Sequence record: MG383452
Length of the DNA stretch: 64,000 bases
Direction: 5' to 3' (one strand)
From: Escherichia phage FEC14
The position numbers and the translations under genes were made by a program. The notes under the pieces are model-generated. The model saw nothing but the letters and a program-made list of their open reading frames with translations, did not search any database and had not been told where the DNA came from. Every line of letters starts with the position of its first letter. Positions within the stretch are counted from its first letter, which is position 1. Below, piece after piece: positions 37,127 to 63,744 of the stretch.

Positions 37127-37146
37127 AACCCCGCCGAAGCGGGGTT
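37127..37146 (-). terminator. intrinsic terminator AACCCCGCCGAAGCGGGGTT with flanking T/A runs, 3' of gp23
   Basis: Perfect GC hairpin with tetraloop; identical 20-mer recurs near 43483 and 63717. Confidence 0.65.
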
Positions 37147-37165
37147 TGTTATCAAAACCTGTCGC

Positions 37166-38488
37166 TTAGAACAGAGATTTGATCAGACCTTTGCGGAAAT
37201 ACGGGTTGCTGTCTTGAGCAATACCGTCAGCAGTCACGTAAACCTGCGGGTCTTGGTTAGCCGGAATCTGTACGAACGGGTTAGCACAGATGCCGTAACG
37301 GGTTTTGAACGCCATACGCGGAGCGAAGGTGGTTTCACCCTGGGTGCGGTACATTTCCAGCGGCACATACGGTGCGAAGAAGATACCGGCATCCAGCGCA
37401 GTTGCGCCTTTGTATGCCAGGGTGATATATTCTGCTACAGCATACGGGTCAACATAGACGCGCATGCCGTTGGACAGAACACCAGCGAAGGTCTGGCCAG
37501 TCGGGTCAACAGCCAGTTTAGTGTTTTCCTGCAGAACCGGAGCATAGTCCAGCATGCCAGACATCGCCAGAGCGGATGCCACGTTCGGAGAACACAGAAC
37601 ACGGTTGCCTTTACCACGACGGGTGTCAACACCGATACCGTTCGCTTCAACTTCCAGCATGAAAGTCAGGAACTTCCATTTTTCCAGCGCCCAACGACCG
37701 GAGATGTCCTGCGCGATATCAACAACACCGTTGGTGCCGAATTTTTTGAAGCGAACAGCACTGAAGTTCATGGTACGGATGAATTCACGGTTCATTTCCG
37801 CCTGAATTTCAGTTACCATCACGTCAGACAGGATATTATCCACGTCTTCGCCGTGAATTGCCATCATGTCCTGACGCAGTTCATGGCTGTAATCAGCGTA
37901 CAGGCCGCGAGACTTGGCAGTAACAGTCGCTTTCTGAACAGTGATACCAACACGCGCCCAAGGGTTGGTGGTAGTACCCAGCAGTTCAGCATCACTTGAC
38001 GGCATACCTTTACCGATAGTGGTCACGCCAGAGCCGGAACCTTCGATCTCAGCCTGACTAAAGCCAGACGGGTCGCCAGCCTGTACAGTACCATCACCGG
38101 AATAGCCGGAATCGGCTTCCTGCATGAACAGTTCTTTACGAGACTGTGCGGTGTTGGAACTGTCACCAACGCCCTGGCGAGCGCGCAGTGCAAAGATCTG
38201 ACCGTCAGGACCAGACAGCGGCTGAACACCGAAGAAGTCCATCGCGATGTTGATCGGCGCCAGACGTTTTGCCATGTCGATCAGAACTGGCTGCCATTTA
38301 CCGACAGTGCTGTTCACAGAACCAGGTGCGTCAGATTCGCCCAGGTTTTTTGCGTTCCATTCAGCCTGGTTCTGCATCAGACGGATGGTTACGTTTTCGG
38401 CAGACAGAGGTTGAATAGCTTCAGATTCTTTTTGGAGAACTGGCAGCCACTGTTTGCGCATTTCTTCGGTTACAAGTTTCTTAGTCAT
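37166..38488 (-). CDS. 23: major capsid protein gp23
   Basis: Region FFGVQPLSGPDGQIFALR and C-terminus MAFKTRYGICANPF align with T4 gp23 (ICGVQPMNSPTGQVFALR, MGFKTRYGIGINPF); AAGGAA RBS. Confidence 0.95.
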   Translation of the reverse strand: MTKKLVTEEMRKQWLPVLQKESEAIQPLSAENVTIRLMQNQAEWNAKNLGESDAPGSVNSTVGKWQPVLIDMAKRLAPINIAMDFFGVQPLSGPDGQIFALRARQGVGDSSNTAQSRKELFMQEADSGYSGDGTVQAGDPSGFSQAEIEGSGSGVTTIGKGMPSSDAELLGTTTNPWARVGITVQKATVTAKSRGLYADYSHELRQDMMAIHGEDVDNILSDVMVTEIQAEMNREFIRTMNFSAVRFKKFGTNGVVDIAQDISGRWALEKWKFLTFMLEVEANGIGVDTRRGKGNRVLCSPNVASALAMSGMLDYAPVLQENTKLAVDPTGQTFAGVLSNGMRVYVDPYAVAEYITLAYKGATALDAGIFFAPYVPLEMYRTQGETTFAPRMAFKTRYGICANPFVQIPANQDPQVYVTADGIAQDSNPYFRKGLIKSLF

Positions 38489-38546
38489 GATGCTCGTTCC
38501 TTACATTGATATTCAGTTAAGTTGAAATTACTTAGTAGTTCAAAAT

Positions 38547-38568
38547 CAAGCCCCCTTTCGAGGGCTGT
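38547..38568 (-). terminator. hairpin 3' of gp22 followed by TGATTTTG on the minus strand
   Basis: Imperfect inverted repeat AGCCC...GGGCT between gp22 and gp23. Confidence 0.35.
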
Positions 38569-38579
38569 GGCTGCTAAAA

Positions 38580-39419
38580 TTAGCCGTTCAGCAAAGCACT
38601 GATCTGGCGACGGACGGCTTCGTTGACTTCTTTGCCAACTTCGTCTTTGTCGTCATCGTCATCGTCATCATCGTCGGCTTCACCTTCTTTCTTCGGTTTT
38701 TTACCTTCTTTGATGTCTTTTTCAGACTTGTCGCCATCCGGCTTGCCTTTTTCATTGTCTTTGCCGACTTTATCAGAGAAGTCATCTTTGCCTTCTACCA
38801 GGTTACGGAAGGTGCGCACACGGGATTCAAATTCAGACTCGGTCTGGAATTCAATACCTTCCAGCAGGTTGACAACAGTGTCTTTCTTGGTGTCAACCAT
38901 GCCTTCACAAATGCGATCAATTACGTCGGTGCGCTGGCGTTTAGTCTCGCTTTCTTTGAGCTGAGCCAACTCTGTATTAGCCATATTGGCGCGTTGTTCT
39001 GCTTCAGCAAGGCGACTGGTGAGGGCGGCAATCTGACCGTCTGGGTCAGTAGCGAAACTCACACCTGCTTCTTTCAGCACGTTGGAGAAACCAGTGAGGA
39101 AGCGTTCAGCAGCTTCAGTTTTGATCTGAGCGTCAATAGCTGGGGCATTTTTGTTAGCCCATTCTTCAACCACCGCGTTGAGGAATGAGTCAACTTTCCC
39201 AGCCAATTGCAGAATGAAATTTTCTTTCAGGTCGGCGATTTCTTTCTGGTGAGATTCTACCAAATTCAGGCGCTCGACGTTGCCAGCTGCTTCGGTTTCT
39301 TGGATAGCTTTCAGACGAGCCGCTTCAACTTTCGATTCCAGCAAATTGGATACTTTATCCAGGAAATCTGGGCTGATGCCGTTAACGCCTTCAAACAGAT
39401 TTTGCAATTCAGGTTTCAT
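38580..39419 (-). CDS. 22: prohead core scaffold protein gp22
   Basis: Position between gp21 and gp23, helical Ala/Glu-rich sequence, poly-Asp acidic tail (DDDDDDDDKDE), size near T4 gp22. Confidence 0.7.
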   Translation of the reverse strand: MKPELQNLFEGVNGISPDFLDKVSNLLESKVEAARLKAIQETEAAGNVERLNLVESHQKEIADLKENFILQLAGKVDSFLNAVVEEWANKNAPAIDAQIKTEAAERFLTGFSNVLKEAGVSFATDPDGQIAALTSRLAEAEQRANMANTELAQLKESETKRQRTDVIDRICEGMVDTKKDTVVNLLEGIEFQTESEFESRVRTFRNLVEGKDDFSDKVGKDNEKGKPDGDKSEKDIKEGKKPKKEGEADDDDDDDDDKDEVGKEVNEAVRRQISALLNG

Positions 39420-39447
39420 GATAGTTTCCTTCTGAACGATTTTTCAG

Positions 39448-39454
39448 TATTTAG
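39448..39454 (-). promoter_or_regulatory. candidate late promoter CTAAATA (minus-strand sense) about 30 nt upstream of gp22
   Basis: Motif recurs upstream of several late structural genes. Confidence 0.45.
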
Positions 39455-39465
39455 TGAGCTGAAAT

Positions 39466-40134
39466 TCAGCCCAGATGATTCAATGCTGCATCAAGGCGGC
39501 GCAGGAAATCGTCTTCAACCTGGATATTGGTTTTCACCAACTGGTCTACAACTTTCCCTTTAACATCACGAGGCATCCAAATACCCGAAGCCTCATCAAG
39601 CTGCCATTCAACAGATTCACTCACAGCCTTAACATAACAAACTTGTCCAGAAGGACGGTCGACTGCATCAACAGCGGTGAGCATAAAGCCAGGCTGAACG
39701 TCATCATAACCGTTTACTGACTTGGTCTCACCCAGGCCACGTGTAGACACGGCCAGATTGAAGTCTGCTTCGGCCAATGCACGTATGATTTGGCCTTTTG
39801 GTGTATTTAAAATTCGCGCCCGACCGATGGCATTAGTGCCTTCCCAGCGAAGGGATTCGGTTTTGAGCGCTGCTTCCACCAGATTAGGGAAAGGATAGTC
39901 AGGATGTGTGACTTCACCGATTGCGCGACGATCTTGGATATACTCTTTGTCGTATGCTTCGACAGCAGGAATACCCACTTTCTGCAGATCATAGTTACGC
40001 CCGTTACGGTTGACTTGGTTACACATCACAAACGGACCTTCGATGAACATGGCCTTCCCACCAGTTGAGGTTGTGGCCTCACCGATTTGAAGATCCTTCC
40101 CTATCGCTGTGATCTCACGCAACAGTTTCATCAT
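39466..40134 (-). CDS. 21: prohead protease gp21
   Basis: Size (222 aa vs 212 in T4) and position between gp68 and gp22. Confidence 0.75.
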   Translation of the reverse strand: MMKLLREITAIGKDLQIGEATTSTGGKAMFIEGPFVMCNQVNRNGRNYDLQKVGIPAVEAYDKEYIQDRRAIGEVTHPDYPFPNLVEAALKTESLRWEGTNAIGRARILNTPKGQIIRALAEADFNLAVSTRGLGETKSVNGYDDVQPGFMLTAVDAVDRPSGQVCYVKAVSESVEWQLDEASGIWMPRDVKGKVVDQLVKTNIQVEDDFLRRLDAALNHLG

Positions 40135-40141
40135 AAACTCC

Positions 40142-40459
40142 TTACTTGTTCTTACTCAGTCCCATCATTTTGCGGAACTTCATAGCCTTTTTCTTGCGGC
40201 GCTCGATTTTACGTTGATAGCCCATTCCCATACGCTTTTTAGAGCGGAGAGCTTTGCGGTTGCCGATCTTGCGAACACGACGTTCGCTGGCGTCCATAAC
40301 TTCACAACGTGAACCATCAGCCGACAATTTGAACCCAGGGGCACATTTCAAGCGGCGGCGGCGTTTACCACGAGCGTTCACTTTATCGATGACTCGCTGC
40401 TCGTCCATACGAGAGGCCAGGAAATCAGCGAACGTGGCGATCTCTGTGATTTCCATCAT
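40142..40459 (-). CDS. 68: prohead core protein gp68-like (basic C-terminus)
   Basis: Position between portal and protease; highly basic C-terminal half. Confidence 0.45.
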   Translation of the reverse strand: MMEITEIATFADFLASRMDEQRVIDKVNARGKRRRRLKCAPGFKLSADGSRCEVMDASERRVRKIGNRKALRSKKRMGMGYQRKIERRKKKAMKFRKMMGLSKNK

Positions 40460-40466
40460 GCATCTC

Positions 40467-40638
40467 CTTACTGGCCGTTGTTGTTTGAATTCATATCAGC
40501 TGCGATAGAATCCAGAACATATGCTGTGCCTTGGTTTAATAGTTCTTGACTACGTGCATCAAGTTCCATGTTGCATTCTGCAACAGCAGTTTCAGTGTCA
40601 CCGTCAATTACTGCACGAACGATATCAATTGCGCTCAT
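40467..40638 (-). CDS. 67: prohead core protein gp67-like small ORF (about 56 aa), not in the supplied track
   Basis: Hand translation MSAIDIVRAVIDGDTETAVAE... preceded by GGAGA RBS and a CTAAATA motif; boundaries approximate. Confidence 0.4.
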
Positions 40639-40665
40639 GATTTTGATCTCCGAATTAATTTTCTA

Positions 40666-40672
40666 TATTTAG
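40666..40672 (-). promoter_or_regulatory. candidate late promoter CTAAATA upstream of the gp67-like ORF
   Basis: Motif about 28 nt upstream of ATG. Confidence 0.4.
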
Positions 40673-40679
40673 TTGAACT

Positions 40680-42362
40680 TTAAATACTATCGTCTGTTGA
40701 ACCGGAGAATGGGATAGTCTCAGGTTTAAACTTCAACGGACTAACATCTGAACCGCTATAATTGCCAGTTTCATCTGCTTGAACCTTCGGATAGAGACCT
40801 TTCTTCTTCTCTTCCGCGATCTTCGTTTGTTGTTCTTTAACTTCTTCATCAGACATACGCAATACATTTCTCATGACGTAGTCTATGGAGAAAATGGAAC
40901 CAACAAATGGCTCAACAGTGTTCAATGAAGCCAGACGATCATTCAAGATAGCGTTTTCTTGTTGTTCACGAATGTAACTATCGGATGTGAATTCAAACTT
41001 TATAAACGGTTTGATCTTCTCATTCCAATCCTTTTCATCCGTAACGCCTTTCAAAATTAACTGGCGGCGCAAGAATTCCATGAAGAAATGGGAGTAACGG
41101 CGTCGTAACCCAGCACAGAACTTGCTGAAGCGCAGCTCTTCCTGTGTAATCTCCGCAAGGTTAGAACCCCCAATGTTAATAGATCCTTCCTCTTGGAGGC
41201 GGCTCTTAGGGATCATTAGAGCATCATAGAGTTTTTCACGGAAATAGTTCACGTGATCCATTTCGCCCAATTGATTCCCACCCCCAACAGTCGCAATCTC
41301 TGTAGCATTCTGACCTTCGCGGCGCGGCAACCAATAATCCTCTGCAATACCCATAAGATGGGCATTACCTGTTATCTTACCAGTGGTGCGGTCATATGCG
41401 TTGCGGTTTTTGAATTTACCCATCATCATGGTCATGTATTCTTCAGCAGATTTCTTACCGAGAGTACCGACGTCAAGATAGAATGCGCGTTTCTCAGGGG
41501 CGCGAGTGATGGCATAAATTACAGTCGCATCTTCAGTCGTAACCAGGTTGTTCAACGGACGGATAGCAGGATTTAAAAGGCCTGGGACAATACCATTGGC
41601 CAATGGCTCTTCACCACTATCGATGTAAACAATGCTTTCGTCATCGAATACGAGTTCTTGCTGTGAAGGCTGGAAGTTCTGGGAAGTACCAGATTGGCCA
41701 GTGAATTGGTTTCGATTATAATTCGGGTTGTAATAATACTTCAATGTTACAGATTCTATTGCTTCAATACCGCCTTCACGCATCGCCTTCTCAACGATAT
41801 AGACAGGACGAATGCAACGAGAATCAAGCATAACCAATTTCTTGATCCCGCCTTTTTTATTCGTGGGATCAACGATGACATGATATGCTTGTCGACCGTC
41901 AACATACCATTTCCGGATCTTCTGATATGCTGTATTGTCAAAGTCCATCAAGTGCATAACTTCTTTGAAGCATTCGGTGATAGATTCTTTAACAGTATCA
42001 GATATCCCTTCAACTTTGTCAAGGTTTACTGTCACTGGAGTTTCATCTTCCTCACAGGTGACAACGTCATTAACAATGATGTCCACAGCTTTGCGGATTT
42101 CTGGCTGCTGGGCCATGGACTGATATTCTTCCACAACTGTTTTAACGCTGAGAAGTTCACTCTCAACGCCAACATAGTTGTAGGTGTTTGCACCGCCCTG
42201 AAGGATTATAGAACCGTCTTGAGCATCGTCCAGAGCAACAACTGTCGCCTTGGTGAGCAACAATTCATCTTGTTTTTGGGCTAACTTATCGGTGTCGACT
42301 TTGGCATTGACTAAACCGCCGCCGCCAAACAAACCGAAGAACCCTGTGCCGTATCCAGCCAT
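40680..42362 (-). CDS. 20: portal vertex protein gp20
   Basis: 560 aa; position between tail tube gp19 and prohead core genes as in T4. Confidence 0.85.
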   Translation of the reverse strand: MAGYGTGFFGLFGGGGLVNAKVDTDKLAQKQDELLLTKATVVALDDAQDGSIILQGGANTYNYVGVESELLSVKTVVEEYQSMAQQPEIRKAVDIIVNDVVTCEEDETPVTVNLDKVEGISDTVKESITECFKEVMHLMDFDNTAYQKIRKWYVDGRQAYHVIVDPTNKKGGIKKLVMLDSRCIRPVYIVEKAMREGGIEAIESVTLKYYYNPNYNRNQFTGQSGTSQNFQPSQQELVFDDESIVYIDSGEEPLANGIVPGLLNPAIRPLNNLVTTEDATVIYAITRAPEKRAFYLDVGTLGKKSAEEYMTMMMGKFKNRNAYDRTTGKITGNAHLMGIAEDYWLPRREGQNATEIATVGGGNQLGEMDHVNYFREKLYDALMIPKSRLQEEGSINIGGSNLAEITQEELRFSKFCAGLRRRYSHFFMEFLRRQLILKGVTDEKDWNEKIKPFIKFEFTSDSYIREQQENAILNDRLASLNTVEPFVGSIFSIDYVMRNVLRMSDEEVKEQQTKIAEEKKKGLYPKVQADETGNYSGSDVSPLKFKPETIPFSGSTDDSI

Positions 42363-42396
42363 GATCTAAGTCCTCAACATTTTCTTGTAATTAGTG

Positions 42397-42416
42397 AGGG
42401 GGAATAACATTCCCCC
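42397..42416 (-). promoter_or_regulatory. strong hairpin GGGGGAAT-loop-ATTCCCCC between gp19 and gp20
   Basis: Perfect 8-bp GC-rich inverted repeat; no clear U-run, so may be a processing or attenuation element, not a terminator. Confidence 0.35.
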
Positions 42417-42429
42417 AGCACCGAGGACA

Positions 42430-42963
42430 TTACAATGACTTGTCAGAAACGGCTTGGAAATAACGCAAGTCGACAGTGAACTGTGTGTAAGAGTCCATTG
42501 CCGACATATCGAGTTCCAATTGGCCGAGGTTTTGAGGCCAGCCACCCTGCAAAGTCCATGTCTTAGTCACGTTGTCATTCGCGTCCAGAAGTTCCATGAT
42601 GATATCACGGAAATAATCATCTGGATTCGCGCTGGCGCGGTTGTTTTCACTACCGTTGATGAATTGCTGCCACACTTCAAAAGCATTGTATGGAGCGTTG
42701 TTCACCACGTTAATGAACGTCACAGGAAGCGCTTCGAAACGACGATCCCCTGGGAACGGAAGTTCACGACCACCCCAGGGCACCAGAATTTCGCCCAGCT
42801 GACCTGTTGGGGTGTTGGTGGTTACAGCCAGCAAGGACACGTCACGAATTGTGTCGGAACCAGCAACAAAAGAAGGAAAGTTTACAGTCACACGCCAGCG
42901 GTGTTGGCGTTGTACGCCGCCCCCTCGTGACATGGCTGCGCGAAACTCATTGACTGTCGCCAT
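42430..42963 (-). CDS. 19: tail tube protein gp19
   Basis: 177 aa, position between sheath and portal. Confidence 0.75.
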   Translation of the reverse strand: MATVNEFRAAMSRGGGVQRQHRWRVTVNFPSFVAGSDTIRDVSLLAVTTNTPTGQLGEILVPWGGRELPFPGDRRFEALPVTFINVVNNAPYNAFEVWQQFINGSENNRASANPDDYFRDIIMELLDANDNVTKTWTLQGGWPQNLGQLELDMSAMDSYTQFTVDLRYFQAVSDKSL

Positions 42964-42993
42964 TTTTATATCTCCAAATAAGAGTACACAATT

Positions 42994-43452
42994 CTAATTA
43001 GTCGTCAATCTTTTAATCTTCATGGAAGAAAGATCGAAACCATGATGAACATTACTTGAAACAGGTTCGATTTCACACAATTCCCAACGGGGATCTATGA
43101 GAGAAACAAGACCAATGTGTTCACCTGTGGATGTCAATTTTGCTGCAGTTTTACCCAGCATATGACTTCCATCATTACCGCCTTTATTCATGTTGTAACC
43201 CATCTCATAAGAATTATATTGAGCGATGAGTTGCTTCTCTAATTCCCATTTATGGACTTCATCGGTCTGAGCAATTACAACGAAAGTAAATCCAGATGTT
43301 CCATACTTACGCATAGCATCATACAATTCACTTTGGACTCCATGATGAAAAGCATTCGCAAAATGCTGATCATATCTTCGTTGTGGGTCATTGGTCACAC
43401 CGATGTAGACCTTTCCATTAGTTATCGTTTCAATTTTGTATGCGTATATCAT
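42994..43452 (-). CDS. GIY-YIG homing endonuclease (free-standing)
   Basis: N-terminal IYAYKIE...GKVYIGVT...RRYDQH is a canonical GIY-YIG motif; inserted between gp18 and gp19. Confidence 0.8.
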   Translation of the reverse strand: MIYAYKIETITNGKVYIGVTNDPQRRYDQHFANAFHHGVQSELYDAMRKYGTSGFTFVVIAQTDEVHKWELEKQLIAQYNSYEMGYNMNKGGNDGSHMLGKTAAKLTSTGEHIGLVSLIDPRWELCEIEPVSSNVHHGFDLSSMKIKRLTTN

Positions 43453-43482
43453 TCAATAACTCAAATCAATAAGACAAAGGAA

Positions 43483-43502
43483 AACCCCGCCGAAGCGGGG
43501 TT
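43483..43502 (-). terminator. intrinsic terminator AACCCCGCCGAAGCGGGGTT 3' of gp18
   Basis: Same 20-mer hairpin as after gp23; followed by T-rich tract on the minus strand. Confidence 0.6.
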
Positions 43503-43510
43503 GGTCATTT

Positions 43511-45406
43511 TTATGAAGCAGCAACGATGCCGCCACCGGATTCGATTTCGCTGAACTCCATATCTGGTCGAACTGCAGCAAAATCCAAATAAATCCAGTT
43601 AATGCTGTACTCAGGCTTCAACCAAATACCAGCAACCATTTGGTTTGCCGCAATGATATCAGCAGTGTTGTTGTCTTCATCACATTTGACTTTACCATCG
43701 TAAATCGCGCCCATATTTGCCAGCTGGCGAATATATGGACGAACCGCATTGCTGAACAGACCACGTGTAAACGCGTCATTGTTCTCACCAAGATAGTATT
43801 TGGCGATTGCGGCGATGTTCTGCTCAGCCATGATGAACAGGCCACGAACGTTGATACGGTCAAACGCCGACGGGCGGGTCAGGCCAGTTTTGTCACCATA
43901 CAGGACGATGCCTTCATTGGAGAAGGTTACGATGCTGTTGATCTGGTTGCGGTACAACACAGCACGTTCATCAGAAGATGCAGACCACGCCATTCGATTA
44001 TAGTTGTTGTATTTACCACGGTTGTGGAACGCCGGAGATTTGTAGATACCCGCGATTTCAATGCTTCGCGCCCAAACACCTGCGGTGCCACCACAAGCCG
44101 GAATCCAACGCATTTTGTCGTTGTACTTGTCGTACACATATGCCCAGTTATCATCCATGAAGAAATAAGAAGAGTCGCGAACAAGGCTTTCACGCCAAGC
44201 AACGACATCATCCATTTCACGACCACGGTTGCCAACAACCGTATCACGGAGCGGGGATACGAAAGATACCGTATCTTTTCGCTCAGTAGATAAGTCGATC
44301 AATGCTTGTTGCTCAATCAGTTCTTCACAGTACGCAAATACTGGCTTCGCATCATATGCTTCAGCATTGTTCAAGACTTGGATAGCTGCCACGCGGTTGA
44401 TGTTATAATCGTCTACGCCGCCTTCTAATTCAACAACACCTGCGGCCAGAGCGGTAGCGAAGGTGTACACCCAATTTGATGTATCATTGATGACATCTTT
44501 GAAGTACGCATTCGCGCCATCGGACTTTTTGGAACCCTGTGTGTTCTGCATGAGTTCGTATTTTTCGATAATAGAACCAGATGCGCCAACAGTGGTAATC
44601 ACGGCGGTTGCAGTCAGCCCCTTATCATCTGGAACAATAGCAGTAACTGTCTGGGGACCAATAGCTTTATGGGTCACGATGACAGTGTTGGACTTCACGA
44701 CAACAGAAGAATAAACACTTGTCAGGGAAGTTAGTGCTGTACCGATTTTGGTTGCCAAATCGGCTGGAGTATCAGTATCCAGATATGCGATATCTTCACC
44801 TGCCACACTGATGGTGCCAGCAGCAGTAGCCGTACCAGAAACGGAGATACGGTCAACCTGACCGACCGCGCCAGCAGAGTCGGTAATGCGACCAACTTTG
44901 TCTACGACAACTACATGGAATTCACCAGACTGAGGTGCGTATGCAAAGTTATTACGGAATTCCCAAGTTGAGAATCCAGCAGCATCACAAACATTGATAG
45001 CAATATCATTACCCAGGGAACCTGGATAACGACCAGTCCAAGTGATGGACGCCGAAGGACTTGCTGTTTCAAAATCCAGTTTGTTTTTGATCGCAATCGC
45101 TGTCTGACCTTTGGTAACAGAGTTCTTGGCCAGAGGACCAACAACACGGGTCACCCATGCCATAGAGCTGTAAGACAAAAAGTCCGCGATTACGAGAAAA
45201 TCGGTCGCAGTACTGTCGTTGGGTTTGAAGAATTTCTTCACCAAACCTGTCTCACCACCAGTCACCAGCACTGGAAGTTCAACTTCACCCCATTGAAATT
45301 TTCCGACGGTCGCGCCCTGAACAACAACGGACGGGGACGTCTGAAGCGTGGCATCACGCTCAGTCCACTGAACGGACGGCGCAACGCTGAAGCTTTGAGT
45401 TGCCAT
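43511..45406 (-). CDS. 18: tail sheath protein gp18
   Basis: GKFQWG motif near N-terminus matches T4 gp18; true start taken as internal ATG (MATQSF) with GAAGGAA RBS, since the track start at 45439 appears to be a non-ATG codon. Confidence 0.9.
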   Translation of the reverse strand: MATQSFSVAPSVQWTERDATLQTSPSVVVQGATVGKFQWGEVELPVLVTGGETGLVKKFFKPNDSTATDFLVIADFLSYSSMAWVTRVVGPLAKNSVTKGQTAIAIKNKLDFETASPSASITWTGRYPGSLGNDIAINVCDAAGFSTWEFRNNFAYAPQSGEFHVVVVDKVGRITDSAGAVGQVDRISVSGTATAAGTISVAGEDIAYLDTDTPADLATKIGTALTSLTSVYSSVVVKSNTVIVTHKAIGPQTVTAIVPDDKGLTATAVITTVGASGSIIEKYELMQNTQGSKKSDGANAYFKDVINDTSNWVYTFATALAAGVVELEGGVDDYNINRVAAIQVLNNAEAYDAKPVFAYCEELIEQQALIDLSTERKDTVSFVSPLRDTVVGNRGREMDDVVAWRESLVRDSSYFFMDDNWAYVYDKYNDKMRWIPACGGTAGVWARSIEIAGIYKSPAFHNRGKYNNYNRMAWSASSDERAVLYRNQINSIVTFSNEGIVLYGDKTGLTRPSAFDRINVRGLFIMAEQNIAAIAKYYLGENNDAFTRGLFSNAVRPYIRQLANMGAIYDGKVKCDEDNNTADIIAANQMVAGIWLKPEYSINWIYLDFAAVRPDMEFSEIESGGGIVAAS

Positions 45407-45448
45407 AATATCATTCCTTCTCGGTAGAGTTTCGCTCAATTTGAAAGA

Positions 45449-45455
45449 TATTTAG
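45449..45455 (-). promoter_or_regulatory. candidate late promoter CTAAATA upstream of gp18
   Basis: Motif about 40 nt upstream of the proposed gp18 ATG, just after the gp17 stop. Confidence 0.45.
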
Positions 45456-45458
45456 TGA

Positions 45459-49031: not shown

Positions 49032-49033
49032 GA

Positions 49034-49736: not shown

Positions 49737-49949
49737 ATGAAGGTTGAAGATATTAAAGAAACTCGTGACGGAAGGCGTGTGAGAATTATCTGTGTAGATG
49801 CTAAAATCGCCGATGGTTCATATAACATTGTGGGTCTTATCAAAGGCGAAAAGGATAATGATTTTATTGAATGGTGGGACGAAAAGAACGTGGTTGATGG
49901 TTATATTCTAGCAAATTCAGATCCTTCCGGACGCGACATCAAGTTATAA
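49737..49949 (+). CDS. small plus-strand protein (70 aa) embedded in the late operon
   Basis: GAGGAA RBS 9 nt before ATG; followed by a bidirectional hairpin. Confidence 0.45.
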   Translation: MKVEDIKETRDGRRVRIICVDAKIADGSYNIVGLIKGEKDNDFIEWWDEKNVVDGYILANSDPSGRDIKL

Positions 49950-49954: not shown

Positions 49955-49972
49955 AAGGCGGGATAACCCGCC
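49955..49972. terminator. bidirectional hairpin AGGCGGG-ATAA-CCCGCCT between the plus-strand small gene and gp13
   Basis: Inverted repeat between convergent genes. Confidence 0.45.
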
Positions 49973-49977
49973 TTCTC

Positions 49978-51329: not shown

Positions 51330-51342
51330 CTTTCAACATTAT

Positions 51343-56181: not shown

Positions 56182-56214
56182 TTTGATGCTCCATCTAGTG
56201 CCATTTTATAGAGA

Positions 56215-56221
56215 TATTTAG
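56215..56221 (-). promoter_or_regulatory. candidate late promoter CTAAATA upstream of the 1612-aa gene
   Basis: Motif about 35 nt upstream of ATG. Confidence 0.45.
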
Positions 56222-56320
56222 TATACAGCCAACAAACAGATAGAAATAAAAACCCAGTTCCTCCACCTGATAGTTTTGAACTTCCAGTTCCTGTCAGGTT
56301 AACGAGACATAGCAAAAGAA

Positions 56321-56339
56321 AGCCCCCTTATTGGGGGCT
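56321..56339 (-). terminator. hairpin AGCCCCC-TTATT-GGGGGCT followed by TTCTTTTGC on the minus strand
   Basis: 3' of the 744-aa tailspike gene. Confidence 0.5.
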
Positions 56340-56345
56340 TGTATT

Positions 56346-58580
56346 TTAGATTGTTACGTTAGCAATACTTTCCGTGAACCAACCAGATGGAGTCTTAACT
56401 AAAGTAACCATCATCTTAGTTGCATAGTCTACCCTCAAAGCAGTAAAGGCTCCTGCCACATTAAAGTGGAATCTGTCCGTTACAGTAGGCAATGTTGTAT
56501 CAGCACGTTTAAGCACTACCCCACCACCAGATGAATCAGAGATAACTGTCACACGCTGGCCCATATATCCACCGCTAAACCCACTAAGGGTAAGAGTAAT
56601 ACCGGAACCAGTGACTAATACAATATCAACACCATCTACAGGAATAGATGCTAGGGTCTGAGTTGTAGTGTACTTATCAACAGCATTCTGACTAACCCCC
56701 AATTGCTGAATCTTAACTGGAGTACCGTTGCGGTTGAAGTTAATTAGGTTGGAGTCTTTGTTTACGTAAAAAGAGTAGTTAGGAATAGCGCCGGATGCGA
56801 GCATTGCTGTTTCATCTACTGACTCTAATTCTCGCAACTCTTTGTGATAGCGGTTGTAGTTTCTGTTCTGGATATACTTAGCATTCCATTGAGTAAACCA
56901 AATACCACCAAAACCACCTGATTCAGATGTAGAGATTACATAACCATCATCACCACCAGGCATTGATGCGATGTACCCAACAGAATCACTTGTGTTGATA
57001 TCCCCAGTAGGAGCTAACCCCCAAGTAACTAGGTCACGACTAATCCATACTCGGTAGTTAGTACGACCAATAGAATTATCACCTACACCATTAGCACAAG
57101 TAAACGCCCAAGTAAGAACACCATTAACCCCATCAAAAATAGGAACCAGGTCACCCTTACTATCCGATGTAACTAAATCAGATAAGTGCTGCCAGTTCTT
57201 AAACTGATGATCACTGATATAGAATTTCTGAAGCCCTTTAAGGTCTGTGGTGTGGTAAGCACGAGAGTTCATCACCATACGACCATCCGGCAAAAGGTTC
57301 AGTCCGACTTCCCCACCAGATTCTTCGGAACTAAGTACGTAGTCCATGCTGTACTTAATGTCATACTTCATGATGGTAAGGAAAGAATCAACCCGTGAAC
57401 CAGTGACGGTAGACACAATCATTGCCATCTTACCATCCGGTAAAACAACTGGTTTAGTTGGTGAAGTCCAGATAAAATCTGCCGTTGCTGGCTTAAGGGT
57501 AGCAGTAATGTTAGCTGGTGTACGCCATATAGTAGGAGCTTCCGCATCACAGTAGGTAACATATATCTGGGATGATGTATTAGGGTCATTGCCTGGCTGT
57601 GAGTATCCCCAACCCAACTGGCCTTTGCAGGAAGTAAAGTAACAGTATACCCGACCATCTACTGGGTTATACACAGCAGCAATCTCACCGTTCTGATACG
57701 TAGCCCCAAAGTTAGCTACCACTACCTTAGCCGACCAAGACCACCCATTATCAATGGAGTATTTCATAACGATATTACATTGCTGATCTGGAGTAGCACC
57801 AATATCTGTATTGTTACCATGCAACTCATTACAGAAAATCATCAGAGTACCATCACCAGTTTTAACAATCTGGGGCATACGGTAGAAGACGGTATCCGTA
57901 GGGTTAAGTTTATCAATAGCAACGTCTGGAGCAGACCATGCTAAGTTTTTACCAGAGTGACGCTGAACGCCACGGATATGGTGATAAACATTAGGAATAA
58001 CGGTTCTCACCATATTCTCTTGGTTCTGCCATGCAGCTTCTTCGGCAAATTCTTCTTCAATGGTTTTGCCATTAGCCAGTACTACCATGGATGCACCACT
58101 GGTACTGTTAAGCTGTTCCTTCAGATAAGAAGCACCCAAGCCAATCCAATTATCATCACTGGATGGTAAAGAGTTCTGAGGTACAACTTTAGGTAATGAA
58201 CCATTCCAACGATACTGGATACCATTGTGGGTAAGTACATCATTCTTTGTGGATACTATTGCACCAGTAGTAAAAGAACCAGGTAATACATTATATTCAT
58301 TGCGTTGGGAAGCTAGTTCGCCCAGGTCTACAGAACCCCCAGAGTGTACAAGCAGAGCACTGGCGCTAAGGCTAATAGCCGTGGTTCCTGCTGGAATATC
58401 TACAGGCAAGGAATACGCTCTCTGTGTTTCCTTGTCATAAATAACCTTATATCCAGACAAGGACTGTCCTGATTTCGCATAAACGACTTCCGACTTTTTA
58501 CACCCAAATTTACGAGCAATACTGTCTTTGTTCGATTCTTTTGAAGTAGAACCTTTTGGTTGAGCAAATTGCGGATTCAT
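56346..58580 (-). CDS. tailspike protein with sialidase-like (BNR/Asp-box) beta-propeller domain
   Basis: Asp-box YSIDNGWSWS and FRIP-like YRMP read in translation; N-terminal about 150 aa shared with the 710-aa tailspike. Confidence 0.7.
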   Translation of the reverse strand: MNPQFAQPKGSTSKESNKDSIARKFGCKKSEVVYAKSGQSLSGYKVIYDKETQRAYSLPVDIPAGTTAISLSASALLVHSGGSVDLGELASQRNEYNVLPGSFTTGAIVSTKNDVLTHNGIQYRWNGSLPKVVPQNSLPSSDDNWIGLGASYLKEQLNSTSGASMVVLANGKTIEEEFAEEAAWQNQENMVRTVIPNVYHHIRGVQRHSGKNLAWSAPDVAIDKLNPTDTVFYRMPQIVKTGDGTLMIFCNELHGNNTDIGATPDQQCNIVMKYSIDNGWSWSAKVVVANFGATYQNGEIAAVYNPVDGRVYCYFTSCKGQLGWGYSQPGNDPNTSSQIYVTYCDAEAPTIWRTPANITATLKPATADFIWTSPTKPVVLPDGKMAMIVSTVTGSRVDSFLTIMKYDIKYSMDYVLSSEESGGEVGLNLLPDGRMVMNSRAYHTTDLKGLQKFYISDHQFKNWQHLSDLVTSDSKGDLVPIFDGVNGVLTWAFTCANGVGDNSIGRTNYRVWISRDLVTWGLAPTGDINTSDSVGYIASMPGGDDGYVISTSESGGFGGIWFTQWNAKYIQNRNYNRYHKELRELESVDETAMLASGAIPNYSFYVNKDSNLINFNRNGTPVKIQQLGVSQNAVDKYTTTQTLASIPVDGVDIVLVTGSGITLTLSGFSGGYMGQRVTVISDSSGGGVVLKRADTTLPTVTDRFHFNVAGAFTALRVDYATKMMVTLVKTPSGWFTESIANVTI

Positions 58581-58611
58581 AATAAGAATCTCCTGTTTTT
58601 CTCTAGTAAAT

Positions 58612-58630
58612 ACCCTCCGAAGAGGGGTAT
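58612..58630 (-). terminator. hairpin ACCCTC-CGAAGA-GGGGT between the 926-aa and 744-aa tailspike genes
   Basis: Inverted repeat immediately 3' of the 926-aa gene; AGGAGA RBS of the next gene follows. Confidence 0.4.
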
Positions 58631-58634
58631 ATTT

Positions 58635-61415
58635 TTAAATAGAAGAATCCAATATACGGTAACTAATTAACTTAGTAGGGTCTACAGGATTAATCAGGTT
58701 GTAGTACCGTGAAGCTACATAATCATTCTCAGAAGAGAACATACCAACATACACTTTAGCACCTACACCAGAACAGGCATCCCCACCAGCATTGCTATCC
58801 GAGAAGAATGTTAATGAAGAAGTTAATCCGAATATAGAATTAAATGGTACAGCTAAATAAGCGCCTCGGAATGACCGTCTGATTCTCTTACCCGTCTGAA
58901 TATTAAGAATACTCCACCAGAAATATCCAGGTTTAGCACCAATAGCTATATGATATGGCACACCACTTTGTAGTTTAAGGTCGTTAGGTAAATCCCCAGA
59001 TAAAATTTGGGTTGTACCATCGCCCCCCAATAGCAAAGCAATTGTTTGTTTTCCAGAAGCGTCTATAACTAATTGAAGATGAAGACTGTTGGATGTATCA
59101 CTAAACCCTGAACCAATGGCCATGAAGTTAAATACTTCAGCTCCAGATATGGTGGGTACTACAACAGCAGCCATGGTAATACCTTCTGGACCTGCTGTTC
59201 TTGAATACAGTAATTTATCTTTGTTGGCTTGTGATAGTCTCAGACCATTTACTTGCCCTACAGAAGATGGGACACTTACATAAACAGGTGTAGTGCTAAC
59301 ACCATCAAATGTAGGGGTCTCGTTCATGGTTTGCAAACCAGTCTTGGAATAATTAACCAATCCGTTAATGCTCAGGTCGGAATTGGTGGGGTTGATAATA
59401 TTGTTATCACCAATAAAGTTAATGCCCATATAACCAGTCTCAACCACACCATTAATGGTGACACTACAATCATTAGACAGGAACTGAAAATTGCCTGCAC
59501 TAGAGTTAGCACCTGAACCACTATTCGCGGCATAATTGAGTCCTACGAATCCGTTGATAACTGCATCACTTTTGTTAAATACGATGTTGTAGAAAGTGTT
59601 GTTAGCATTGATGCCGTTACGATTGGTGTTCAATCCGTTCATGGAAATTGAATATGACTCGCTAATCTCAATACCATTCCCGCCACAATCTTGTACCTCA
59701 ATACCATTAATAACCATATTCTGGCTGTTATTAATAGTAATGCCTGGAAACTGTCCTACTGTACCATAAGGTTGCCAGTTAGCCCAAATGAATTTACCGC
59801 CAATAATACGACCATTACCACAACCATCAAGAACTAGACATTGTTTACCGCAGGTATTAACCTGGATATTTGTCCAAGTCCAATCAGTAGTAGCACAACG
59901 GACACCCACCTGATTGATGTGGTTGACTAAAAGAGAATCTGTAGTAACACTAAAGTTACCACTATCAATATTTAACCCATATTCATCAAAACCTGCTATA
60001 TGGACCTTAGAAATACACAAGTCCCGTCTTGGGTCTGCGGTAGTGTGGAACGGATAATCGGCTGAGAGACCTGAAGGAGTTTCTACATAGATACCTGTTG
60101 TGCCCGCAGTAAATGACGTGCCTTGTTGTGCACCTGTGCCATATACCCCAAAGGCGTCTAATACAATAAGGGAGCATGTATCTTTTATGGTAATACAATT
60201 CCCAGTAGCAGAAGGCAACTGATGCAACCTTGAGTAATGTAATCCAGACCCATAAATAGACGACGTATTATATTTTAACTGGATATTGCTAACGTAATGT
60301 ACACCAGTTAATTGTGTGGCCTTACCACTATCCACACAAGATTGTACTGGAATAGTATCATCATTAGAACCACCCAAAGCACCAAACATGAATGGGTTAA
60401 CTCTATCAGCATTAACACGTAACCATGCTGCGCCGCCAACAGTTTTGATCACAGTACCGTTATTATCAGTCTTTCCTGTACCATCAATTAACGCACGGAA
60501 TACCCCTCCACCAAGAAGAGTACCCGCAGTGTGTTGCTTAAGAATAATGCGTTGTCCATCCATAGTGGGTTCAGTATTCCTGAGATCAGCAACAGAATGG
60601 CATTCTCCAATATACTTGGCACCATCATTGCGCCCCAGAGTGTTTATCACATTAATAAATGAATCTTCTAAAGGCAACAAATCAACCTGCACATCACCTG
60701 GGTTGTAATTCAATTTCCCAGCAGATACAGAAGAAATGACAGAACCATCAGGAATGGTTGGTAAACCATAACTGGTTTGCGTCGCTATATCATAAACAAC
60801 TTTCTTCCCATCCAACAAAGATATGGTGTCCGTACTAACGATGACTTCAGAGTCTTTTACATTAGCAGAACGGGCGATTTCTTGAATACTTCGGTCAAAC
60901 GCCGGACTGATATTCGGTTGTTTAACAGACATTTCAGCGACTACCCAAACGCCTGCAGTCAGTGCAGTTTGCAAAGACACTTTCCCTGTCGTGCTGTTAT
61001 AGGAATATTCAATTTCGGGTGTTTTGTACTCGCCACCGATATAAAGAGATTGGACACCATAGGATGTGAAATCAGGAGTGAACTCGGTTTCACCCCCTAC
61101 GGCTTGAAATTTGTATATGCGGATACCTTTGGCTGTATCTTCTGGCGAAAGAATTTTATCGAATAAGCAATACACAACATCGCCTTTGGACAATGCGCGC
61201 CCGAGATTCAACGTATTTCCTTCGATTTCAAAGTTGTCTAACGGAACTTGCATACCACCGTTGATTGTGACTACGCCAGTGACAGGATAGAACGGCAAGG
61301 AAAGGAAAGTTTCTCCACCAACATTTGATTTATACGTGAAAGGAATCTGGTGGGGAGCTGTGATTACGCCGCCGAATAATTCTTCTACATTTCTGGTCAT
61401 TTGAAAATACCCCAT
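58635..61415 (-). CDS. tailspike protein with parallel beta-helix (depolymerase-like) domain (926 aa)
   Basis: Repetitive Asn/Gly/Ile-rich rungs (e.g. NGIEISESYSISMNGLNTNRNGINANN) typical of right-handed beta-helices; distinct N-terminus from neighbours. Confidence 0.7.
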   Translation of the reverse strand: MGYFQMTRNVEELFGGVITAPHQIPFTYKSNVGGETFLSLPFYPVTGVVTINGGMQVPLDNFEIEGNTLNLGRALSKGDVVYCLFDKILSPEDTAKGIRIYKFQAVGGETEFTPDFTSYGVQSLYIGGEYKTPEIEYSYNSTTGKVSLQTALTAGVWVVAEMSVKQPNISPAFDRSIQEIARSANVKDSEVIVSTDTISLLDGKKVVYDIATQTSYGLPTIPDGSVISSVSAGKLNYNPGDVQVDLLPLEDSFINVINTLGRNDGAKYIGECHSVADLRNTEPTMDGQRIILKQHTAGTLLGGGVFRALIDGTGKTDNNGTVIKTVGGAAWLRVNADRVNPFMFGALGGSNDDTIPVQSCVDSGKATQLTGVHYVSNIQLKYNTSSIYGSGLHYSRLHQLPSATGNCITIKDTCSLIVLDAFGVYGTGAQQGTSFTAGTTGIYVETPSGLSADYPFHTTADPRRDLCISKVHIAGFDEYGLNIDSGNFSVTTDSLLVNHINQVGVRCATTDWTWTNIQVNTCGKQCLVLDGCGNGRIIGGKFIWANWQPYGTVGQFPGITINNSQNMVINGIEVQDCGGNGIEISESYSISMNGLNTNRNGINANNTFYNIVFNKSDAVINGFVGLNYAANSGSGANSSAGNFQFLSNDCSVTINGVVETGYMGINFIGDNNIINPTNSDLSINGLVNYSKTGLQTMNETPTFDGVSTTPVYVSVPSSVGQVNGLRLSQANKDKLLYSRTAGPEGITMAAVVVPTISGAEVFNFMAIGSGFSDTSNSLHLQLVIDASGKQTIALLLGGDGTTQILSGDLPNDLKLQSGVPYHIAIGAKPGYFWWSILNIQTGKRIRRSFRGAYLAVPFNSIFGLTSSLTFFSDSNAGGDACSGVGAKVYVGMFSSENDYVASRYYNLINPVDPTKLISYRILDSSI

Positions 61416-61434
61416 AAAGGATTTGCCAATATGG

Positions 61435-61441
61435 GGTATTT
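61435..61441 (-). promoter_or_regulatory. candidate late promoter CTAAATACCCCAT upstream of the 926-aa tailspike
   Basis: Part of an about 50-nt module nearly identical to that upstream of the 710-aa tailspike. Confidence 0.45.
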
Positions 61442-61505
61442 AGGCTGAACTAATAAAATTTATAATAAGATCCCCCCGCTTTTGGCGAGGAGGGATGGTT
61501 GTTAA

Positions 61506-63638
61506 TCATATCAATCCGTAAATGACATTGTGTATTGCGATACCACCAACAATAGAGGAAACATTGAAATTAATTTCAGCTTTGTAAGCTCCTGGCGGAA
61601 CGCAATCCACCAAAGCATAAAAGTTGAACGTGTTTCCTACTGGGATGTTATATCCTATGGAATCCGCGACAGCATTTCCTTGCTGGTCCAGGAATCTAAT
61701 TGATGCCAGGGTGGTGGTTGTATTTTTAGCCCAAAAACCAAGTTGAAAATAACGCCCAGGCTCACAGTCAATGATTGTCTGGGTGAAATTAGCCGCTGCA
61801 CCCACTGATGGTACGGATAAGACAAAAGAAGTTGAAAACATTAAATCATTAGGGACATCATTTCCTACAGTAGCGGTGACAACGCCGGATCCAGTTTGTG
61901 ACAGCGCCCAGTTAGATATATTATTAAACTGTCCTGAACCGTTACTAATACTGTTTATATGAGGGCTTACAATGCATCCTAAATCCCAGTTACTTGTGAT
62001 AAATCCTGCGCGTGGATAGCAACCTCTAGACATTACTTTTTTACTTAATCCGCCTATCAACTGCCTTGTGGCAAATCCAGTAGCAATCGTTGTATTCCCA
62101 TAGAGTGGTAGCGAACAATTATTTAGAATAACAACCCCATCCCCGTTGTTTACAATAGGTACTGTAGAATAATCATTTGGCAACAGTATCGTCGAATCAC
62201 TGATGCTTAATCGTGAACTACCATCCACAGTAAACCCAACGAAACTCTGACCTGGTTGATACTCAATGTTACCGTTTGTGAAAACCATAGTTGCGTTATC
62301 AGATAACGCGACAACAGGGTCAAAATATCCTGATTTTTTACCTGCTGGCAGAGAGCAGCTATCGAATATAAATTGACCATTAACAAACGTGAAAGGTCCA
62401 CCGTTGTCAACCATCCAACAATGATTAAATTTTATAACCTCACCGGAATTCGCTGGTGAATTGAAAATAACAGAATTTGTAAAACTTCTGGACAACGTAC
62501 ATTTATCAAAAAGAATACGATATGCATTATCAAGAAACTCAATTCCGGCAGTTGAGATAAACCCGCAATTAGATATTCTTAACTCTGAGACTTCTCCACT
62601 GGTAGAACCACCGATCGCCAATTTCCTGGTCCCTTTTCCAACAAATGACACTCCAGTCATTAACGCAGTTGCGTTAATTACATCTCTATTGGTGTAATCC
62701 GTGTCTGTATTAACAATGGTTAGATAGTAGCCGCCCGTTGCAGATGCAGATTCTATTAGAGTACATTTATTTTTTCCAATAAGTGCACCTTTTGCTATAT
62801 CAAAAATAATCGGTGTTGTTATCTCACCAGAAACAGGGACTACACAGTCAAATCCGACGGCATTTATTTTATTGATGAATATAGCCAAATCTCCGGTTCC
62901 TGTATAACCAGCTTCGTACACATCCACCACACCGTTGAATAATTTCCTTTTCCAAACGACACCATTGCCTTGGAAAGTAACGATATTATCTACCACAGTA
63001 TCTGAGTTAACAGCCACCATAACACCGCCACCAAGATTAAACCCGTCAACATACGAATCAAGAATTATAGAATCACCAATTAATCCTGCTATTGATGATA
63101 ATTCAGAAACTGATGATACGGTTCCTATATAAGATAAGCCATTCGGTTTATTTAAATTACTTTTCAGAGATGCAACACCAACACTCAACCATGCACCTAA
63201 ACCAACGCCACCAGATGTTTCAGGTGTTGAGCCAGCATCGACAGTTTTAGGAAGTGAACCATCCCATCGATATTTTTTATCATCGTGAACAAGAAGTTCA
63301 TTTTTCACATTAATGATATGGCCGAAATTAAAAGAACCAGGTAAAGTCACATATTCTTCGCGGCTTACTGCTAATTCCCCAAGGTCAACAGAGCCAGCGG
63401 AATGAGTGAGGATGGCTTGTTCGTTCAGGCTTATCGCAGTCGTTCCTGAAACAATACCCGAAGGAAGAGAATAAGCCCGTTGGGTAGACTCATCATAAAT
63501 TACTTTAAATCCACCGAGATCAATACCGACAGTGAAATAAATGACTTCGTCTTCTTTGACACCGAAATTTCGAGCGATAGATTGTTTGTTAACTTCTATG
63601 GAAGTGGAGCCGCGTGGTTGATTGAATTGAGAAATCAT
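61506..63638 (-). CDS. tailspike protein with beta-helix domain (710 aa), sharing N-terminal anchor domain with the 744-aa tailspike
   Basis: N-terminal about 150 aa about 60 percent identical to the 744-aa protein (QPRGSTS...KVIYDESTQRAYSLP...GSVDLGEL...YRWDGSLPK). Confidence 0.7.
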   Translation of the reverse strand: MISQFNQPRGSTSIEVNKQSIARNFGVKEDEVIYFTVGIDLGGFKVIYDESTQRAYSLPSGIVSGTTAISLNEQAILTHSAGSVDLGELAVSREEYVTLPGSFNFGHIINVKNELLVHDDKKYRWDGSLPKTVDAGSTPETSGGVGLGAWLSVGVASLKSNLNKPNGLSYIGTVSSVSELSSIAGLIGDSIILDSYVDGFNLGGGVMVAVNSDTVVDNIVTFQGNGVVWKRKLFNGVVDVYEAGYTGTGDLAIFINKINAVGFDCVVPVSGEITTPIIFDIAKGALIGKNKCTLIESASATGGYYLTIVNTDTDYTNRDVINATALMTGVSFVGKGTRKLAIGGSTSGEVSELRISNCGFISTAGIEFLDNAYRILFDKCTLSRSFTNSVIFNSPANSGEVIKFNHCWMVDNGGPFTFVNGQFIFDSCSLPAGKKSGYFDPVVALSDNATMVFTNGNIEYQPGQSFVGFTVDGSSRLSISDSTILLPNDYSTVPIVNNGDGVVILNNCSLPLYGNTTIATGFATRQLIGGLSKKVMSRGCYPRAGFITSNWDLGCIVSPHINSISNGSGQFNNISNWALSQTGSGVVTATVGNDVPNDLMFSTSFVLSVPSVGAAANFTQTIIDCEPGRYFQLGFWAKNTTTTLASIRFLDQQGNAVADSIGYNIPVGNTFNFYALVDCVPPGAYKAEINFNVSSIVGGIAIHNVIYGLI

Positions 63639-63670
63639 GATAATACCCCATAAAGGATGACCAATATGGG

Positions 63671-63677
63671 GTATTTA
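63671..63677 (-). promoter_or_regulatory. candidate late promoter CTAAATACCCCAT upstream of the 710-aa tailspike
   Basis: Second copy of the shared upstream module. Confidence 0.45.
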
Positions 63678-63708
63678 GTCTGAACTAATCAAATTTATGA
63701 ACAAAGGT

Positions 63709-63744
63709 ATAATAAGAACCCCGCCGAAGCGGGGTTCTTATTAT
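63709..63744 (-). terminator. extended palindrome ATAATAAGAACCCCGC-CGAA-GCGGGGTTCTTATTAT
   Basis: Third copy of the AACCCCGCCGAAGCGGGGTT hairpin, here with longer palindromic arms; 3' of a truncated upstream gene. Confidence 0.55.

Follow-up and report, generated by a model that had tools for sequence, protein, structure and literature searches.

Intrinsic terminators capped by a C(UUCG)G tetraloop were first described in the intercistronic regions of phage T4 (Tuerk et al., 1988, PNAS 85:1364, as cited in PMC3972237). T4-type phages also carry promoter-early stem-loop (PeSL) cassettes, in which a terminator stem-loop and a promoter occupy intergenic repeats bordering swapped genes. These cassettes mediate modular shuffling, and their crossovers have been located inside the stem-loop or close to it (Arbiol et al., 2010, PMC2839356; Comeau et al., 2014, PMC4122927). 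In Kuttervirus, modules of the tailspike proteins (TSPs) are swapped between TSP1 or TSP3 and TSP4, with the TD1 motif GTTAVSL proposed as the 5′ site of exchange (Sorensen et al., 2021, PMC8432352). The subject of this analysis is a 20-mer that recurs three times in a 64,000-nucleotide stretch of Escherichia phage FEC14 (sequence record MG383452; hereafter the window, meaning the whole stretch). Its three copies are very probably Rho-independent terminators on the minus strand, each a generic near-optimal sequence kept by purifying selection. The element belongs to an already known class, the C(UUCG)G intrinsic terminator, and is already annotated in related GenBank records.

The window derives from a CBA120-like phage of Salmonella and E. 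coli, a Kuttervirus (Ackermannviridae), and shares about 98% identity with CBA120, Se-E, JN03, Mutine and others. The 20-mer AACCCCGCCGAAGCGGGGTT lies at 37127-37146, 43483-43502 and 63717-63736, all on the plus strand as written, and these exact copies are the only matches in the window when up to three mismatches are tolerated. The original prediction of a verbatim triple repeat is thus upheld: 100 dinucleotide shuffles gave an expectation of 0.00 and not a single match at the same tolerance, and chance repetition of a short GC-rich word can be dismissed. Beyond the repeat, the flanks of the three copies are unrelated save for being T-rich downstream, and identity stops at a hairpin of 20-22 nt.

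All substantial open reading frames (ORFs) between 30 and 64 kb of the window lie on the minus strand, where they are the counterparts of the major head protein, the tail sheath and the four tailspikes of CBA120. With the flanking genes in this orientation, the RNA carries the reverse complement of the 20-mer, AACCCCGC-UUCG-GCGGGGUU; the loop on the transcribed strand is UUCG rather than CGAA, and the RNA reads ...GC-UUCG-GC... at all three sites. A reading on the plus strand, which would place CGAA in the loop and which the original prediction had adopted, was rejected on two grounds, the minus-strand orientation of the neighboring genes and the position of the T-run on the UUCG side.

The genes to which the repeats had been assigned are correctly named. 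The site 1 hairpin (37126..37147, minus strand; AAACCCCGC-UUCG-GCGGGGUUU, a 9-bp stem with the tail UUCUUUAUAG reaching 37116) begins 18 nt past the stop codon (37166-37168) of the major capsid protein gene, a gp23 homologue (37166..38488, minus strand) equivalent to the CBA120 major head protein. The site 2 hairpin (43483..43502, minus strand; AACCCCGC-UUCG-GCGGGGUU, with the tail UUCCUUUGUC at 43482..43473) begins 8 nt past the stop codon (43511-43513) of the tail sheath gene, a gp18 homologue (43511..45439, minus strand) that corresponds to the tail sheath of CBA120. The site 3 hairpin (63709..63744, minus strand) sits at the 3′ end of the tailspike gene that occupies the TSP4 position (63738..64000, minus strand), whose C-terminus is of the CBA120 TSP1 type. 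Here the extended palindromic arms reported earlier are real and form a perfect 16-bp stem, AUAAUAAGAACCCCGC-UUCG-GCGGGGUUCUUAUUAU, with a predicted folding energy of −28.7 kcal/mol (z = −7.3), and both stop codons, TAA TAA (63743..63738), fall inside its 5′ arm. The tailspike gene itself is not truncated in any biological sense, as had been supposed; its ORF is open to the end of the window and is cut by the window edge alone.

At the RNA level, the hallmarks of intrinsic termination are present at each of these gene ends. The isolated hairpin folds with −15.5 kcal/mol (z = −4.2), against −14.6 kcal/mol for the same stem with an inverted CGAA loop, and the minus-strand RNA adopts the predicted hairpin in context too, which answers the folding check that had been proposed. 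The stems comprise 8-9 bp (16 bp at site 3), including 6-7 G-C pairs, and on the transcribed strand a C-G pair closes the UUCG loop at all three sites. The stem ends in UU(U), followed by the U-rich tracts UUCUUUAU at site 1 and UUCCUUUGUC at site 2, and by a weaker one, CUUAUUAU, at site 3. Each hairpin is in the sense orientation, shortly past the stop codon or, at site 3, overlapping it. In a consensus scan, all three sites pass the terminator pattern and rank among the best terminator-like sites on the minus strand.

These features suggest a simple sequence of events. As RNA polymerase leaves gp23, gp18 or the TSP4-position gene, the nascent RNA would form a stem of 8-9 bp, six of them G-C pairs, under a C(UUCG)G tetraloop of exceptional stability, and the U-rich tract directly after the stem would permit release of the transcript. 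The same 3′ hairpin would also be expected to protect the abundant late mRNAs against 3′ exonucleases. The identity of the copies would then reflect a generic near-optimal sequence under purifying selection at each site, and not the recent spread of one copy.

The orientation of such hairpins across an entire genome bears directly on whether they act as RNA or as DNA. The whole CBA120 genome was assembled from four pieces, and every perfect GC-rich hairpin in it was catalogued. In all nine perfect-stem hairpins with a TTCG or CGAA loop, the loop is UUCG in the sense direction of the gene next to it (a probability of 1 in 512 under random orientation); these hairpins follow the genes for ligase, the ssDNA-binding protein, NrdA, orf111, gp23, gp18, TSP1, TSP2 and orf234. 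A palindrome acting at the DNA level, for instance as a protein-binding site, a cruciform or a replication or packaging signal, would account for the near-perfect symmetry of the sequence, which at site 3 extends to a 36-bp palindrome. However, the orientation bias of the loop and the one-sided T-runs argue against a symmetric DNA site. The hairpins are always located just past stop codons, and the 20-mer is equally common in unrelated bacteria, so that a DNA-level function appears exceedingly improbable.

Comparison among relatives further favors a structured RNA under selection at each site. When the UUCG-type hairpins of the family are pooled, four of eight base pairs exhibit two-sided compensatory changes, while the loop-closing C-G pair is invariant. 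In the RefSeq record of Mutine (NC_049428), a "regulatory: terminator" feature is annotated at the orthologue of window positions 37120-37144, that is, at the gp23 hairpin. The stem AAACCCCGC/GCGGGGTTT followed by a T-run is found after gp23 in nearly all of 22 Ackermannviridae loci (79-100% gp23 identity), spanning Kuttervirus, Taipeivirus, Limestonevirus and Agtrevirus-like genomes, with a variable spacer and downstream flank; the element is therefore conserved, as first proposed. Its loop occurs as UUCG, UCCG, CAUGU or CAUAU and, in two genomes, as a flipped CGAA. In the most divergent of these phages, Erwinia phage Bue1, the stem is swapped for GCCCUC/GAGGGC with the UUCG loop retained, and more distant T4-like contigs carry other GC hairpins after gp23, several of them with UUCG loops. 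No Rfam family reaches its gathering score anywhere in the window, as is expected for a bare terminator.

After gp18, CCCCGC-UUCG-GCGGGG alternates with AUGCCCUC-UUCG-GAGGGCAU in a mosaic that is evident even at 98-99% gp18 identity. Another explanation for the identical copies is concerted evolution, in which gene conversion would keep the three copies within a genome the same. Such a process would produce what is seen in the window and in CBA120, each of which has three exact copies. Yet the gp23 and gp18 hairpins are often unlike within a single relative genome (in one combination gp23 has a CAUGU loop and gp18 a UUCG loop; in another gp23 has CCCCGC and gp18 has AUGCCCUC), and the third CBA120 copy resides at another locus: it follows TSP1, where the window has a hairpin with an AAUAA loop (56320..56340), and not the TSP4/TSP3 junction. 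Concerted evolution was rejected on account of the mixed hairpin types within genomes, and we regard it as very unlikely.

Similarity to relatives often breaks off shortly past the 3′ side of the hairpin: for gp23, at 37109-37124 in 14 of 22 relatives, and for gp18, at 43473-43481 in 10 of 20. In each core gene, conservation thus extends through the terminator and gives way to variable DNA beyond it. The variable DNA consists of small ORFs past site 1 and, past site 2, of a GIY-YIG homing endonuclease ORF (42994..43452) lodged between the gp18 terminator and gp19; this endonuclease gene is present in some relatives and absent in others.

Among otherwise 97-99% identical genomes, polymorphisms were also observed in which a palindromic terminator has its loop exchanged for the exact reverse complement. 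They include UUCG versus CGAA at the gp23 terminator (window 37131-37142 versus the loci L126 and L138), UUAU versus AUAA (window 49955-49974 versus CBA120 112587-112606) and UUUUG versus CAAAA (window 61472-61492 versus CBA120 126104-126122). Each looks like a single inversion or template switch inside the hairpin, as opposed to several point mutations. The comparisons also uncovered two GenBank entries, OR844942.1 ("Enterococcus phage Efm 3-10"; about 98% Kuttervirus match over 8.5 kb) and MN871475.1 ("Pseudomonas phage Pa-sanjiao"; 88.5% Kuttervirus match over 120 nt), that are probably mislabelled or contaminated.

Outside the family, the 20-mer recurs on a scale that speaks to its origin. 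It occurs exactly in at least 120 IMG/VR contigs; the matches listed comprise 103 distinct flank contexts, forming at least 74 loose clusters, and only about three of their contigs are related to the window. It is likewise present in at least 120 bacterial contigs from species-representative genomes, with at least 65 independent flank contexts, drawn among the matches listed from Pseudomonadota, Bacteroidota, Cyanobacteria, Verrucomicrobia and Elusimicrobia. Among the matches listed, and read in the UUCG orientation, the viral contexts have at least five T in the next 8 nt in 67 of 74 cases and the bacterial ones in 57 of 65; an A-rich upstream flank is uncommon (11 of 74 and 9 of 65, respectively). 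So many independent viral and bacterial contexts point to convergence on a generic optimum. A control stem, GGGGCC-UUCG-GGCCCC, is equally abundant (both counts being lower bounds), and the 20-mer of the window appears to be one among several popular generic terminator hairpins. With the G-first control just as common, the polarity of a C-rich 5′ arm was rejected as the cause of the recurrence. CBA120 contains a second reused family, (A)AGCCCC-UUCG-GGGGCU(U), at 41455-41474, 59271-59288 and 143424-143441, and reuse of a small UUCG repertoire is therefore general in these genomes.

The original prediction had also raised the possibility of a mobile module. A mobile repeat, akin to a miniature inverted-repeat transposable element (MITE) or a repetitive extragenic palindromic (REP) sequence, would be recognized by shared sequence past the hairpin or by target-site duplications; here the flanks are unrelated, and the 103 flank contexts among the listed IMG/VR matches have no common extension except the T-run. 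At sites 1 and 2, where flanks are not shared and hairpins differ within genomes, mobility is thus not upheld; the idea retains partial merit at site 3, which coincides with a module boundary.

Several points weigh against generic terminators as the full account. A stem of the same composition, CCCGCC-UUCG-GGCGGG, yields 14 IMG/VR matches and is thus at least eight times rarer than the 20-mer, so the notion that any GC stem would do fails to account fully for the favored CCCCGC. At site 3, the U-tract of the tail UUCUUAUUAU is interrupted and pairs with the upstream A-rich arm, so that termination there may be only partially efficient. Literature searches found no Kuttervirus transcriptome and no RNA 3′-end mapping for any Ackermannviridae phage, and we therefore infer termination itself, along with mRNA stabilization in vivo. 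Overall, the terminator assignment stands on the GC stem, the U-rich tail, the sense position past the stop codon, the conservation and the GenBank feature, with only the strand of the first reading in need of correction. In a phage group employed in biocontrol and detection, the hairpins show where the gp23, gp18 and tailspike transcription units end, although they matter little as terminators.

It is at the tailspike locus that the hairpin may have a further role. The segment 63711-64000 of the window, comprising the C-terminus of the receptor-binding domain and the hairpin, is 95.9% identical to CBA120 118878-119167, the 3′ end of TSP1 (orf210) with its hairpin. The match is thus to CBA120 TSP1 and not to CBA120 TSP4, and the alignment ends at the hairpin. 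Se-E is 99.7% identical to the window here, with similarity running past the window end, and its TSP4 gene is a chimera of the N-terminal part of CBA120 TSP4 and almost the whole TSP1 body. The donor (TSP1) and recipient (TSP4/TSP3) contexts share only AAAAACCCCGCTTCGGCGGGGTT, 23 nt in length. The TSP3-position gene of the window, in turn, ends like CBA120 TSP4, with the hairpin of that gene in loop-flipped form and a shorter variant of the linker. At site 3, the hairpin marks the 3′ limit of a receptor-binding module that has been shuffled from one tailspike position to another, a mildly new observation.

More broadly, the tailspike modules at 61506-64000 are permuted relative to CBA120, the TSP4 position carrying a TSP1-type receptor-binding body, an arrangement that would imply a host range unlike that of CBA120. 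Within the site 3 stem, a G at window position 63737 (A in Se-E) converts an A.C mismatch into a G-C pair and perfects the 16-bp stem; it may be a one-sided compensatory change that followed recombination, or it may be due to chance.

Downstream of the site 3 hairpin lies an inter-tailspike linker (63640..63708, minus strand) that contains CTAAATACCCC (63678..63668) and the inverted repeat AATACCCCATA/TATGGGGTATT ahead of the TSP3 ATG at 63638. A second copy of this composite linker (61416..61492, minus strand) follows the TSP3-position gene, and has an imperfect hairpin, CTCCTCGCC-AAAAG-CGGGGGG (61492..61472), a loop-flipped version of the hairpin at the CBA120 TSP4/TSP3 junction, and then CTAAATACCCC (61443..61433). 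In an alignment of the junctions, the composite linker recurs at both TSP4/TSP3 and TSP3/TSP2 with the order hairpin, TTCTTATTAT(ACCTTTGTTC)ATAAATTTxATTAGTTCAGA, CTAAATACCCC, inverted repeat and start codon. In both linkers (63640-63708 and 61416-61471) the inverted repeat, AATACCCCATA(N12-13)TATGGGGTATT, ends a few nucleotides before the start codon, and its 3′ arm covers the G-rich stretch expected for the ribosome-binding site. The linker may thus combine a putative late promoter with a translational control hairpin.

The motif CTAAATAYCYC, with at most one mismatch, occurs nine times in the window against 2.8 expected; eight of these copies are on the gene-sense strand, and most are situated shortly upstream of the starts of large minus-strand ORFs. 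It presumably matches the late-promoter consensus proposed for Viunalikevirus. The T4 late promoter TATAAATA has two matches in the window, none of them near the three sites; it was rejected as a terminator-adjoining promoter, CTAAATAYCYC providing the better fit. Promoter motifs of the CTAAATACCCC type were not found at sites 1 and 2.

Together, these elements raise the possibility of a recombination cassette, in which the hairpin and the late-promoter-like linker would supply 3′ homology for the shuffling of genes or receptor-binding modules, much as in PeSLs, and in which such exchanges would spread the identical copies or maintain them. The TSP1-type 3′ end whose match stops at the hairpin, the Se-E chimera, the junctions having AAAAACCCCGCTTCGGCGGGGTT alone in common and the duplication of the linker at two junctions are all in keeping with it, as are the precedent of PeSL crossovers mapped to stem-loops and the loss of similarity within some 10-20 nt 3′ of the hairpin in many relatives at sites 1 and 2. 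However, a homology patch of 23 nt is short, the three sites have no flank similarity to one another, sites 1 and 2 are without the promoter motif, and their hairpins do not co-vary within genomes. Furthermore, gene cassettes naturally end in a terminator, so that breakpoints beside the hairpin are expected even if it has no part in recombination. A recombination cassette hence remains a tentative, minority interpretation of the repeated copies.

Similarly speculative, plausible but less likely than not, is the specific suggestion that the terminator hairpin and its late-promoter-like CTAAATACCCC linker form a 3′ recombination anchor for tailspike module exchange, complementing TD1/GTTAVSL at the 5′ end. 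Were it true, receptor-binding modules could move between the four tailspike positions and between phages, and the hairpin and linker would constitute a late-gene analogue of the T4-type PeSL cassettes. If hairpin and linker are the 3′ crossover zone, they would also offer a ready-made homology arm, and a boundary to preserve when retargeting Kuttervirus host range.

Besides the three sites, the window contains further hairpins at gene ends. On the minus strand, CCCUC-UUCG-GAGGG (58613..58626) follows the TSP2-position gene, and the AAUAA-loop hairpin mentioned above, AAGCCCCC-AAUAA-GGGGGCUU with the tail UCUUUUGC, follows the TSP1-position gene. The stem of the 20-mer reappears with another loop at 20851..20871 (minus strand; AACCCCGC-CGUGU-GCGGGGUU followed by UCUUUUGG), and a terminator-like hairpin, AAGGCGGG-UUAU-CCCGCCUU with UCUUUUUAUA, occupies 49955..49974 (minus strand), its loop being inverted (AUAA) in CBA120.

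The other GC hairpins listed in the original prediction were confirmed, all of them on the minus strand. GGCGGGG-UUU-CCCCGCC (27553..27569), which has a weak U tail, is situated 31 nt after the gp45 sliding-clamp gene. GGCGGGG-N8-CCCCGCC (15314..15335), also with a weak U tail, lies between two genes with products starting MTDQ. GGCGGG-GAAA-CCCGCC with UUCAUUUUGA (16617..16632) follows a vWA-like gene (16641..18893), the label of this 750-aa protein being based on a VDISGSM motif of the MIDAS type. These three follow genes that do not belong to the late structural cluster. Their arm polarity is reversed, with the G-rich arm on the 5′ side, and their U-tracts are poor; instead of terminating efficiently, they may serve as attenuators or stabilize RNA.

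Between the gp45 clamp gene and the upstream helicase gene, about 700 nt (28284-28978) are without a convincing ORF: the gene strand offers only one of 50 aa, the CBA120 equivalent is unannotated and there is no Rfam match, and a terminator-like hairpin is located within this gap at 28953..28934. Elsewhere, TTATTGAAT is enriched in the window, with six matches (38-46, 12588-12596, 16192-16200, 35272-35280, 43451-43459 and 49864-49872) versus 1.3 expected. Five of the six are on the plus strand and read ATTCAATAA in the gene sense, and several adjoin terminator hairpins.

Among the described systems, the published account of Kuttervirus module swapping bears on the tailspike locus. The TSP1-type module in the TSP4 position of the window corresponds to the similarity reported between TSP1-1 and TSP4-7 (92-100% identical; Sorensen et al., 2021, PMC8432352). 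The paper is silent on the 3′ junction, and the words intergenic, terminator and hairpin are absent from it. Placing the 3′ edge of the module at the terminator hairpin is an addition to the published swapping, if a modest one.

The PeSL cassettes provide a second parallel. As in PeSLs, the inter-tailspike linker couples a hairpin to a putative promoter, CTAAATACCCC, at two junctions, site 3 and TSP3/TSP2, and the TSP1-type module has its limit at the hairpin, with only 23 nt in common between donor and recipient contexts, which is compatible with a crossover without being proof of one. PeSLs, however, have early promoters of the sigma-70 type and lie next to ORFans in hyperplastic regions, whereas the linker described here has a late-type promoter-like motif, resembling that of T4 late genes rather than TTGACA-N17-TATAAT, and is flanked by tailspike genes. 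No strong sigma-70 match was detected at the three sites, and only the site 3 copy of the 20-mer is part of such a linker.

The closest counterparts remain the C(UUCG)G terminators of T4, with which the three hairpins share the C-G-closed GC stem, the UUCG loop and a U-rich tail in the sense orientation after highly expressed phage genes. Nothing essential separates the two, and the three hairpins would be the Ackermannviridae counterparts. Outside of phages, the identical hairpin is in use as a working synthetic terminator: the iGEM part BBa_B1002 (cgcaaaaaaCCCCGCTTCGGCGGGGttttttcgc) and an independent synthetic terminator (ccccgcttcggcggggttttttt) contain an identical 16-nt stem-loop, CCCCGCTTCGGCGGGG, with an A-tract and a T-tract on its sides. 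The phage copies differ in their natural origin and in having interrupted T-runs in place of T6-7. The UUCG-capped CCCCGC hairpin can thus be regarded as a natural, widely reused optimum, and engineers have reached the same sequence.

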